This document shows, piece after piece, positions 61,328 to 63,912 of a stretch of 64,000 bases of DNA. Each line of letters starts with the position of its first letter. The stretch's first letter is position 1. Origin of the DNA: Myxococcota bacterium (GTDB taxonomy: Bacteria; Myxococcota_A; UBA9160; JAFDDA01). The notes beneath the pieces are model-generated. The model saw nothing but the letters and a program-made list of their open reading frames with translations, was not told the origin of the DNA and searched no databases. The translations under genes were made by a program, and so were the position numbers. The stretch spans positions 3,008,001-3,072,000 of the forward strand of contig OZ245817.1 of NCBI GenBank assembly GCA_965228475.1, read 5' to 3'.

Positions 61328-61980
61328 ACGTACTCCGCGCCGTGCTCTGGAAGGATCTCCTTGCCGAGTGGCGAAGCCGCGACCGCCTGCCCGCCATGCT
61401 GGTCTTCGCCCTGCTGACGGTCCTCGTGCTGCGCTTCTCCCAGCCCCCGGGTGAGGGCGCCGGCGCGGCGCCGGGCCTCCTGTGGGTCGCCTACGTCTTC
61501 GCCGCCGTGCTCGGCATGAACCGCGGCTTCGCCCTCGAACTCGAGAACGAGGCGCTCGCCGGCCTCGCCCTGGCCCCCGTCGACCGCGGCTGGATCTACC
61601 TCGGCAAGTTCCTCGCGAACGTCCTCCTGCTCGGCATCGCCCAGGCGACGACCGCGGTCTTCTTCGCCGTGCTGTTCGACGTCGATCTGCTCGGCGTCGC
61701 GGCGCCCTTCCTCGGCGTGGCCCTGCTCGGCGCCATCGGGCTCTCGGCAGCCGGCACCCTGTTCGCCGGCATCGCCGTCCGCACCCGCTACCGCGAGGTC
61801 ATGCTCCCCCTCCTGCTCTTTCCGCTGCTCGTCCCGCTGCTCGTCGGCGCGGTCCAGGCGACGGCCTCGCTGCTCGAGGGCGAGGGGGTCGACGGCAGCG
61901 CGCTCCAGCTCCTGGCCGTCTACGACGCCGTGTTTCTGATAGCCTCCACCATTCTCTTCGAGTACGTGCTGGACGAATGA
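61324..61980 (+). CDS. ccmB: Heme exporter permease CcmB
   Basis: WKDLLAEWRSR, LLFPLLVP. Confidence 0.85.
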   Translation: MNVLRAVLWKDLLAEWRSRDRLPAMLVFALLTVLVLRFSQPPGEGAGAAPGLLWVAYVFAAVLGMNRGFALELENEALAGLALAPVDRGWIYLGKFLANVLLLGIAQATTAVFFAVLFDVDLLGVAAPFLGVALLGAIGLSAAGTLFAGIAVRTRYREVMLPLLLFPLLVPLLVGAVQATASLLEGEGVDGSALQLLAVYDAVFLIASTILFEYVLDE

Positions 61981-62708
61981 CGCCTTCGACCCCTCCGATC
62001 GACGCCTCCGACAACGCCGTGGAACGGCTCGCCCGCGCCGCACAGCGCCCGACCGGCGTCGTGCTGGCGATGCTCGTCGTGTGGATGAGCTGGGTCGTCT
62101 GGAACGCGCCCGCCGACGTCACCCAGGGCGTCGTCTACAAGATCCTGTTCGTGCACGCGCCGGCCGCCTTCGCCGCCTACCTGGGCTTCATCCTCACCGC
62201 GATCGGCGGCGCGCTCTACCTCTGGAAGAACGACGAGCAGTGGGACCGCCTGGCGGTCGCCGCCGCGGAGGTGGGCGTCCTCTTCTGCACGATCAACATC
62301 GTGACCGGGCCGATCTGGGCCAAGGCGATCTGGGGCAAGCCCTGGGTCTGGGATCCGCGGCTGGTCGTGACCGCGCTGCTGTGGGTGACCTACCTCGCCT
62401 ACACCCTGCTGCGCGGCTTCTCGGAAGAAGGGCCGCGGGCGGCGCGCTTCGCCGCGGTCTACGGCCTGGCCGGCGTGCTGCTGATTCCGCTCAACTATTT
62501 CGCCATCGATCTGTTCCAGGGTCGCGGAATGCACCCGGAGAACCTCGAGCGCGGCAGCCTCGGCGTGGGGATCGGCCTCCCCTTTCTCGCCGGCACCCTC
62601 ACGACGCTCACGGCGTTCCTCTTCCTGCTCTGGCTGCGGCTCGACGTCGGTGGCCTGCGCGCGCGTGCGGACCAGCTCGACCGCGAGCGGTGGGAGGCGG
62701 AGGCGTGA
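61977..62708 (+). CDS. ccmC: Heme exporter CcmC
   Basis: FVHAP, WWD domain WAKAIWGKPWVWDPR, MHP. Confidence 0.9.
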   Translation: MTPSTPPIDASDNAVERLARAAQRPTGVVLAMLVVWMSWVVWNAPADVTQGVVYKILFVHAPAAFAAYLGFILTAIGGALYLWKNDEQWDRLAVAAAEVGVLFCTINIVTGPIWAKAIWGKPWVWDPRLVVTALLWVTYLAYTLLRGFSEEGPRAARFAAVYGLAGVLLIPLNYFAIDLFQGRGMHPENLERGSLGVGIGLPFLAGTLTTLTAFLFLLWLRLDVGGLRARADQLDRERWEAEA

Positions 62709-62833
62709 CCTGGGTCGTTGCTGCGTACGCGGTCGCCTTCGGCGGCGCCGCGCTCTACGGATTGCACCTCGTCCGCTCCCGATCGGCGCTCCGTAAGGCC
62801 TTGAGAGACGGGCGGAATCGAGATGGCAGTTGA
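62705..62833 (+). CDS. ccmD: CcmD-like small membrane protein, 42 aa
   Basis: GTG overlapping ccmC stop; WVVAAYAV TM followed by basic tail. Confidence 0.7.
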   Translation: MTWVVAAYAVAFGGAALYGLHLVRSRSALRKALRDGRNRDGS

Positions 62834-62859
62834 CAGCCACGGGCGGGGCTCGGTATAAC
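62830..62859 (+). promoter_or_regulatory. Strong sigma70-type promoter
   Basis: TTGACA (62830-62835)-N18-TATAAC (62854-62859); closest to consensus that I found in the window. Confidence 0.75.
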
Positions 62860-62865
62860 GGCAGA

Positions 62866-63340
62866 ATCTCGTAAGCTGTGGCTCTAGCTGGTTTTTTCAG
62901 CTCTCGATCGACGCGGTCGGCCCTCGCGAAAGTGGGGCTCGATCGTCGGAACGCAAGGCTTCTGGTATCCGCCCCCCACGGCGCTGCCCTGATCGCCAAC
63001 CGTGCCACCCGCGCCCTGCGCAGGAGGCCGGCCCGGGGGACGGCTCGCAGAAGCAAGGACTGTGAAAGTTCTTGCGCAAGCGATGGCCATCGCACCGGGT
63101 GAGGGTAGTTTGGTTCTCGATTCAAGCCTTCCGGATTCCCAACACACCCGCACGGCGGGACGTAACCTGTGTGTAACGGGGCCGCAGGGGCTCGAGGCAA
63201 CGGCGCGGAACGAGGGTGGTGCTCGTCCGGCCGGGGTGCCGTGGCACGGGGCTTGCCTTAGTACGGTCTGAATTCGCGAGGCCGAGCCCCCACCCACCAC
63301 CGGGGCGGACGTCGGGCTCGACCAGCCGGGAGGCATCCAA
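62866..63340 (+). ncRNA. Candidate large structured non-coding RNA / 5' leader of unknown class
   Basis: No credible ORF; multiple hairpins and nested long-range complementarities (see findings); boundaries inferred from promoter and next ATG. Confidence 0.6.
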
Positions 63341-63344
63341 GAGG

Positions 63345-63845
63345 ATGGCCAGCATGAAACGTGGCGTCGGATACTGCGAGAACACGGACTGCGAGGACTA
63401 CGCCAAGGGCGTGTTCCTGCTGAACCACGGCGACACCTTCTATTGCCCGCGCTGTCGCCAGCTCGGCAAGGTCGAGAAGGAGCGCGGGTTCTACACCGGC
63501 AACTCCGACGTCTTCAAGGAAGTCCGCGTCGAGTACAACTTCGACCCGATCAACGGCATCTACCGCGAGATCGCGATCGTGCGCGACGAGAGCCTCTGGG
63601 GCCGCAACAACGTCTACACGCTGCAGTCGCCGCTCATCAAGACCGAGAAGCGCGCCCTCAAGGTCGCCGAAGCGATCCTCGCCAACCTGAACCGCTACCG
63701 CGGCCTGCTGAACGGCGACGACATCCCGCGCACCACCGAAATCATCTTGTCCTTCGACGAGCCTTTCGACGAGTTCTCGCGGAAGCTCACCCAGCTCTCG
63801 AAGGAATGGGAGGCCAGCGGCCTGCGAGAGCAGCAGCAGCGCTAG
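63345..63845 (+). CDS. Hypothetical Cys4 (putative zinc-binding) protein, 166 aa
   Basis: CENTDC...CPRC; strong codon bias; alternative ATG at 63354. Confidence 0.8.
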   Translation: MASMKRGVGYCENTDCEDYAKGVFLLNHGDTFYCPRCRQLGKVEKERGFYTGNSDVFKEVRVEYNFDPINGIYREIAIVRDESLWGRNNVYTLQSPLIKTEKRALKVAEAILANLNRYRGLLNGDDIPRTTEIILSFDEPFDEFSRKLTQLSKEWEASGLREQQQR

Positions 63846-63875
63846 CCCCCACCGAACGCTTTCTCTCCTTGCCTT

Positions 63876-63912
63876 CGCCTCGCTGGATGGTCCAGCGGGG
63901 CGTTGGTGTTTC
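63876..63912 (+). terminator. Intrinsic terminator
   Basis: 12-bp stem CGCCTCGCTGGA/TCCAGCGGGGCG followed by TTGGTGTTTC. Confidence 0.65.

Follow-up and report, generated by a model that had tools for sequence, protein, structure and literature searches.

We analysed a 64,000-nucleotide (nt) stretch of DNA from a Myxococcota bacterium (the window; contig OZ245817.1), with a focus on the 510 bases (62834-63344) between the end of a cytochrome-c maturation (ccm) operon and a gene for a zinc-ribbon protein. An earlier note on this DNA had read the gap as a new noncoding RNA (ncRNA) or a complex regulatory leader, about 480 nt long and highly structured. Our analysis suggests, with a probability of roughly 0.7, that the gap is a control region in which sigma-70 and sigma-54 promoters stand in tandem with an enhancer, similar to glnAp1/glnAp2, and not a large folded RNA. 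A housekeeping-type promoter, three boxes at helically phased distances and a sigma-54 promoter are conserved ahead of the gene in related genomes, and conserved RNA structure is absent from the gap. The complex regulatory region of the earlier note was borne out, and the structured RNA was not.

Predicted promoters and phased boxes ahead of the zinc-ribbon gene

Homologous loci were compared using a main sample of the 80 best of 209 genome loci, in which the zinc-ribbon protein is 93-99% identical. The sigma-54 counts include an 81st locus, which has just 14 nt of upstream sequence. A sigma-54 (-24/-12) element with at least 8 of 10 consensus positions is found in 80 of the 81 loci, and one with at least 9 of 10 in 70 of them. 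The element is always on the gene strand; the ATG follows at a distance of 65-288 nt, and of 98 nt in the window. Background matches of at least 9/10 number nine in 705,658 bases, or 0.009 per 700 nt, and just three matches on the minus strand of the same regions reach 9/10. An alignment anchored on the sigma-54 box contains information solely at the -24 and -12 positions, and this ungapped alignment revealed no motif at a fixed distance upstream of the box. The genome has one rpoN gene (PF04552 match, 214.7 bits) and 27 Sigma54_activat (PF00158) matches, 21 of which are above 150 bits. None of the 21 strong activator genes adjoins the locus.

The promoter from which the proposed RNA was to start, TTGACA-N18-TATAAC, is present in the window and is a putative promoter of the sigma-70 type. 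Its -35 hexamer matches the consensus at 6/6 positions, the spacer is 18 nt and the -10 hexamer matches at 5/6, without the final T. Our promoter scan left 62830-62859 unlisted because it demands a T at the final -10 position. In 75 of the 80 loci, a TTGAC(A/T/G) hexamer was found 300-540 nt ahead of the sigma-54 box. Four hexamers located inside ccmC were dropped, and 71 of the 80 loci were kept, which carry TTGACA (63 loci), TTGACT (7) or TTGACG (1). The background frequency of TTGACA is 0.043 per 400 nt. The -35 hexamer is mostly preceded by GG and an A-rich stretch, and in many loci an 'aaatcaaat'-like stretch lies ahead of GGTTGACA. A -10-like hexamer (TAnnAn or TAnnnT) follows 16-19 nt past the -35 in 54 of the 71 loci. 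The strict -10 pattern fits 3 of 80 loci, most of which carry TATAAG, TATCAA or TACAAA. The sigma-70-type promoter accompanies the zinc-ribbon gene even in loci without ccmC upstream. Both promoters are on the plus strand before one gene, about 410 nt apart in the window, and the pair recurs in 71 loci.

The start of this promoter overlaps the end of a ccmD-like open reading frame (ORF), whose TGA stop (62831-62833) falls within the -35 hexamer. The final 45 nt of the ORF are 43/45 identical to a congener (the same-genus genome G001, also L007), and the remainder has diverged. From the sequence, promoter constraint appears to override coding drift at the end of this ORF. The A/T-enriched stretch directly upstream of the -35 (Table 1) may be an UP-like element.

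The upstream regions of the 71 loci were aligned using MAFFT, which recovered three conserved boxes between the two promoters, B4, B5 and B6. B4 ends in NTGCG in 57 of the 71 loci, the B5 motif is present in 47 and the B6 pattern GCAR-N6-8-GCAN in 53. In a subset of 26 loci with equal spacing, chosen so that the stretch from B4 to the sigma-54 box aligns nearly gap-free, the two GCA triplets of B6 are (near-)invariant. The distances between the boxes fall into classes that are about 10-11 nt apart. The B4-B5 spacer measures 11-15 nt (37 loci), 22-26 nt (25) or 33-36 nt (2); the B5-B6 spacer 40-45 nt (4), 50-56 nt (33), 60-65 nt (8), 71-75 nt (3) or 81-85 nt (2); and the spacer between B6 and the sigma-54 box 50-56 nt (36), 60-66 nt (21), 72-76 nt (4) or 82-86 nt (2). 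Rayleigh R values at a period of 10.5 nt are 0.80, 0.65 and 0.68 for the three spacers respectively (99.9th percentile of the null, 0.31-0.36). The distance from TTGACA to B4 is not phased (R 0.07). Several subgroups contain switches from one spacing class to another. A step of about 10.5 nt corresponds to one turn of DNA, as expected for protein sites that face a promoter across a loop. Sigma-54 enhancer sites are typically located about 100-150 bp upstream and act with DNA looping, according to the part of PMC7057263 used here, and the positions of the boxes agree with that placement and looping.

We propose that the gap acts mainly as DNA and provides composite transcription control for the zinc-ribbon gene. 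The sigma-54 promoter would drive the gene via a leader of about 80 nt. B4, B5 and B6, located at about -81 to -208, would be sites for a sigma-54 activator (an enhancer-binding protein) and perhaps for a helper protein, and they would be held on one face of the DNA so that looping brings the activator to the promoter. The sigma-70-type promoter, pointing in the same direction, would allow transcription across the whole region without the activator, in the manner of glnAp1 upstream of glnAp2 in E. coli. Bound activator could also block read-through from this promoter; repression of the upstream promoter by such a roadblock is conjecture. If the proposal is correct, a class of mostly uncultured Myxococcota keeps one control region composed of a housekeeping-type promoter, three phased boxes and a sigma-54 promoter, and the boxes are a concrete starting point in the search for the activator of the zinc-ribbon protein and for its controlling signal.

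Several observations weigh against this proposal. The loci are related by descent, so the counts and Rayleigh values overstate their independence, and when distinct spacing values alone are used R falls to 0.42, 0.34 and 0.50. Spacings outside the classes occur in 7, 21 and 8 of the 71 loci for the three spacers respectively. The boxes are degenerate in the window itself, where B5 is without a clean CTTCC half and the first B6 repeat is GTA. All of them lie 200 nt or more beyond the -10 box of the upstream promoter, leaving that promoter free of overlap, unlike the arrangement at glnAp1. Among non-Watson-Crick cells in B5, G-T outnumbers A-C by 16 to 2, a strand bias that would suit RNA. Given the conserved upstream promoter, the boxes are probably also transcribed, and the RNA of the boxes may have a role. 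A control region of this kind explains neither the T-run that follows the upstream promoter nor a C-rich block upstream of B4. Protein binding, the start sites, sigma-54 dependence and the interplay of the two promoters are all inferred from sequence.

The C-rich block (CCCCACCCCCC type, often then GGGGAAGC) is conserved upstream of B4 in many loci, L049, L060 and L084 among them. Its counterpart in the window is the tract at 62969-62979, and the GGGAAG of the block resembles a B5 half-site.

Table 1. Features in and around the gap, with positions in the window.
Feature	Position	Strand	Details
ccmC	61980-62708		Pfam CcmC match, E 2.3e-30
ccmD-like ORF (41 codons), end of ccm operon	62708-62833	+	Weak Pfam CcmD match, E 0.021
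A/T-enriched stretch directly upstream of -35	62814-62829	+	100% identical in congener, even at synonymous ccmD positions
Sigma-70-type promoter, TTGACA-N18-TATAAC	62830-62859	+	-35 at 62830-62835, -10 at 62854-62859; predicted start near 62866
Conserved block after promoter	62860-62905	+	T-run 62892-62897; 62% identity to congener
Fast-evolving spacer	62906-63059		Contains CGATCGA hairpin, 5' arms of helices 1-4, C-rich tract 62969-62979
Box B4 (CTGYGA-N5-A-N-TTGCG type), candidate activator site	63060-63076		About -208 to -192 from predicted sigma-54 start
Box B5 (GGWAG-N4-CTTCC type), candidate activator site	63101-63119		About -167 to -149
Box B6 (two GCA(G/A) repeats 11 bp apart), candidate activator site	63173-63187		About -95 to -81
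Sigma-54 (-24/-12) promoter, TGGCAC-N5-TTGC	63242-63256	+	10/10 consensus positions; predicted start near 63268
5' untranslated region of sigma-54 transcript (extent predicted from promoter position)	63257-63344	+	Ribosome-binding site GGGAGG 63328-63333; 68% identity to congener
Gene for 166-aa zinc-ribbon protein	63345-63845	+	Second in-frame ATG at 63354
Terminator-like hairpin and T-run behind zinc-ribbon gene	63876-63902	+	Terminator scan: 12 pairs, 9 G-C

Tests for RNA structure and rival readings

The earlier note had described a set of nested helices, and the sequences on which it relied are there. The four long-range complements (helices 1 to 4) are perfect in the window, with 8, 9, 7 and 5 bp respectively. 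Also present are two hairpins (GCAAGGAC/GTTCTTGC and CCCGC/GCGGG), a palindrome at 63080-63093 and the CGATCGA/TCGATCG arms (62905-62911 and 62939-62945). The G+C content of the window is 72%, at which complements of 5-9 bp are expected over 500 nt.

Folding energies gave no sign of a structured RNA. The plus strand of the 486-nt stretch has a minimum free energy of -223.8 kcal/mol, compared to a mean of -221.9 for 100 dinucleotide shuffles (z -0.29); 39 of these shuffles are at least as stable. The minus strand has a z of -1.02, contrary to the claim that the many G-U pairs favour the plus strand. Across the 71 loci (12 dinucleotide shuffles per locus) the mean z is -0.70 for the plus strand and -0.65 for the minus strand, with no difference between the strands (p 0.69). 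Four sub-segments, each compared with 40 mononucleotide shuffles, have mean z values of -0.34 to +0.11. A search of Rfam 15 (4227 models) yielded no match at the gathering score in the whole window and, at E up to 10, two chance-level matches (E 2 and E 9) between 62700 and 63450. ARAGORN detected neither a tRNA nor a tmRNA in the gap. The gap matches no known RNA family, which supports the earlier note on this point.

Covariation was assessed across the homologous loci and does not support the helices. RNAalifold predicted no pairs in the 26-locus alignment from B4 to the sigma-54 box, the best-aligned 200 nt. When the inverted repeats of B4 and B5 were forced as helices, 71.0% of cells were paired compared to 71.7% in shuffles, and the covariation score was 0.132 compared to 0.141, with 353 of 500 shuffles reaching it. 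B4 varies without compensation, and the middle position of B5 is T/T in 21 of 59 loci, again without compensation. Over the whole region, 14 of the 71 rows (from three subgroups) yielded 11 pairs at -7.5 kcal/mol with three double-change cells, a covariation score that was reached by 20 of 500 shuffles. RNAalifold runs on 12 subgroups yielded inconsistent and noisy structures. Because alignment of the 5' half is poor, any weak local structure in that half may have been overlooked. Two other pairings picked out by eye, a long-range one of GCGUGUGC with GCACACGC and one of GGAGGCGAC with GUCGCCUC, were rejected: they are confined to one or two closely related subgroups, where the sequence mostly does not change, and neither the window nor the congener has them.

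The congener has the same gene order and a nearly identical zinc-ribbon protein, and its gap aligns in patches only. In a blastn search of the gap against all homologous loci, the congener alone matched, in two pieces with 75-77% identity; three matches of 35-39 nt in other genomes look like G+C-rich chance matches. Identity to the congener is 34% at 62911-63059; in the adjacent gene, third codon positions are 83% identical. Helix 1 keeps 0 of 8 pairs, because the congener lacks 62931-62977, which includes the whole 5' arm. Helix 2 keeps 5/9 pairs, helix 3 keeps 3/7 and helix 4 keeps 2/5, and the GCAAGGAC hairpin keeps 1/8. The sole survivor is the palindrome GCGATGGCCATCGC (63080-63093), with 6/7 pairs and one double change. 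The palindrome sits in a B4-B5 spacer of 24 nt, and the segment is missing from loci with a 13-nt spacer. The 3' arm of helix 2 (63241-63249) coincides with the -24 box of the sigma-54 promoter, and the segment that was thought to offer a switching alternative pairing (63236-63244) overlaps the same box. At 72% G+C, a structured RNA does not follow from nested complements of 5-9 bp together with a good promoter.

These results bear most directly on the possibility that a conserved ncRNA or long structured leader starts at the 62830-62859 promoter. The conserved blocks would then be RNA motifs, perhaps bound by the zinc-ribbon protein in an autoregulatory arrangement, and the sigma-54 promoter would be embedded near the 3' end. 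We regard this as unlikely. It would account for the promoter that points into the region in 71 of 80 loci, for conserved blocks that span about 300 nt, and for the G-T excess in B5. It also draws on the surviving palindrome, on hairpins of differing sequence at the same place in six related loci, and on a G-to-C change in L085 that a C-to-G change offsets within a candidate long-range pairing (the last two by eye). However, fold energies equal those of shuffles on both strands in the window and in the 71 loci, no consensus pairs were found where the alignment is best, covariation is at or below shuffle level and the boxes vary without compensation. The first-proposed helices are broken in the congener, the 5' half is poorly conserved even within the genus and Rfam holds no match. 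The spacer steps of about 10.5 nt are a property of the DNA helix.

A variant that retains the enhancer is slightly more doubtful still: a long RNA from the upstream promoter would cross the enhancer, and the conserved blocks, including the C-rich block and boxes, would serve in addition as RNA elements for recognition by a protein, for which the zinc-ribbon protein itself is the most attractive candidate. If true, a new kind of autoregulatory leader, shared throughout the class, would lie over a sigma-54 enhancer.

We consider it improbable that the upstream promoter belongs to a separate unit, unrelated to the boxes, that makes a very short or attenuated RNA ending near 62880-62897. A T-run is found about 27-35 nt past the -10 box in 33 of the 71 loci, the first 45 nt after the promoter are better conserved than the following sequence (mean identity 77% compared to 67% in 15 close pairs), and a strong G+C hairpin directly adjoins the T-run in a few loci (e.g., -17.3 and -11.2 kcal/mol). 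However, most hairpins ahead of the T-run are weak (range -2 to -17 kcal/mol; -4.2 in the window), the terminator scan is empty near 62880-62897, 38 of the 71 loci are without a T-run and an RNA as short as about 30 nt would be unusual. The T-run at 62892-62897 could act in termination, in pausing or in bending of the DNA.

Finally, it is very improbable that the gap holds a gene for a small protein or for a leader peptide, either in a 74-codon GTG frame (62878-63102) or in the 'MEA(T/I)A' frame of relatives: an ATG-GAG-GCN start-like motif recurs in about ten loci, a TGY (Cys) alternation in B4 looks synonymous by eye, and the window and congener share an 'MAL.G' start with two synonymous changes, but the spacer between the start motif and B4 measures 26, 26, 27, 27, 28 and 30 nt in six close loci and so allows no single frame, one locus has an in-frame stop in B4 and another is without a start codon, B4 varies in length, and the congener frame stops after seven codons. 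Small-ORF readings were rejected on these frame breaks; no Pfam-recognisable ORF was found in the gap, where the minus-strand ORF 62884-63336 was the one ORF scanned and the plus-strand frame 62878-63102 was not.

The zinc-ribbon gene and its surroundings

The zinc-ribbon protein has only a sub-threshold Pfam match, to the S27a zinc ribbon. We identified 439 relatives, none with a recorded Pfam domain save one 280-aa fused entry (P0038), which carries the GST families PF14497, PF13410 and PF00043; some relatives carry the automatic name 'S27AE'. The protein is present in all 28 sampled genomes of the class (23 from the same order, four from another family, and G000 itself). Identity across the class is 73-96%, and for 24 of the other 27 genomes it lies at 91-96%. 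The query used here did not detect the protein in 123 further genomes of the phylum Myxococcota. An AlphaFold2 model built from 28 aligned rows has a mean predicted local distance difference test (pLDDT) score of 58.5 and a predicted template modelling (pTM) score of 0.43, too poor for a fold search, and in the ESM Atlas its own Myxococcota clusters alone score above 0.9. A literature search on Myxococcota sigma-54 and enhancer-binding proteins, which was not aimed at the protein itself, yielded no paper on the locus.

Four sets of contigs from RNA libraries (sediments and wastewater) match the coding part, with 542, 474, 7 and 361 contigs respectively. These metatranscriptome contigs of relatives cover 63339-63847 only; further upstream they continue as loose ends (12-255 nt) of dissimilar sequence and are uninformative on the gap. 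GGAGGC 7-mers are common ahead of the start codon across the loci. Between the ribosome-binding site and the first ATG, CATCC (63335-63339) can pair with GGATG (63344-63348) across a 4-nt loop, a pairing that is kept in many loci, sometimes via a G-U pair (both by eye). The hairpin would cover the first ATG and not the second.

The gene looks monocistronic, given the terminator-like hairpin behind it (Table 1). In the congener the next gene (L002, 366-926) is convergent and NUDIX hydrolase-like, by a motif read by eye. Upstream, ccmC precedes the zinc-ribbon gene in 70 of the 81 loci. The records of these loci are labelled as Myxococcota or deltaproteobacterial metagenome-assembled genomes (MAGs), some of them mislabelled. 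The MAG records of L012, L017, L021, L027 and others say Spirochaetaceae/Spirochaetales, Longimicrobiales or Desulfobacterales, and these are probably mislabelled bins.

Comparison with known systems

Large bacterial ncRNAs in Rfam include GOLLD, ROOL, OLE, HEARO and raiA, alongside RNase P, tmRNA and 6S. The RNA first proposed here resembled them in its size of 300-500 nt, its own promoter and its intergenic position. The gap differs from them in that it has no Rfam match, excess fold stability or covariation.

The part of a preprint used here (bioRxiv 10.1101/086108) describes sigma-54 promoters in which CT-rich 'insulator' motifs silence read-through translation. As in that system, read-through would come from an upstream promoter into the sigma-54 region, and C-rich tracts occur in the gap, at 62969-62979 and, in the leader, at about 63288-63299. 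However, relative to the motifs covered there, the tracts here are mostly interrupted by A, show no clear GGGAGG complement by eye, and lie much more than 25 nt from the ribosome site.

Dependence of activator sites on the face of the helix is familiar from the NifA and NtrC literature. Generic sigma-54 promoters with upstream activator sequences, as characterised in the part of PMC7057263 used here, share with the gap the -24 GG and -12 GC at exact spacing, conserved sites about 80-210 bp upstream and whole-turn spacing. The gap differs in having three boxes over about 130 bp and, by eye, no recognisable IHF site in the 54-bp spacer.

The promoters of E. coli glnALG offer the nearest parallel. 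There, glnAp1 and glnAp2 are about 115 nt apart. As at glnALG, one gene is preceded by a housekeeping-type and a sigma-54 promoter that stand in tandem and point the same way, and activator sites, here candidates, lie between or around the two; glnHp1/p2 is similar. The two systems also differ: the promoters here are about 410 nt apart (300-540 nt across loci), the boxes lie downstream of the upstream promoter with no overlap between activator sites and that promoter, the box motifs are not NtrC sites, and the gene that would be regulated encodes an orphan zinc-ribbon protein. At glnALG, NtrC represses p1 and activates p2, according to the part of PMC3870243 used here. The closest known kind of control region is glnAp1/glnAp2.

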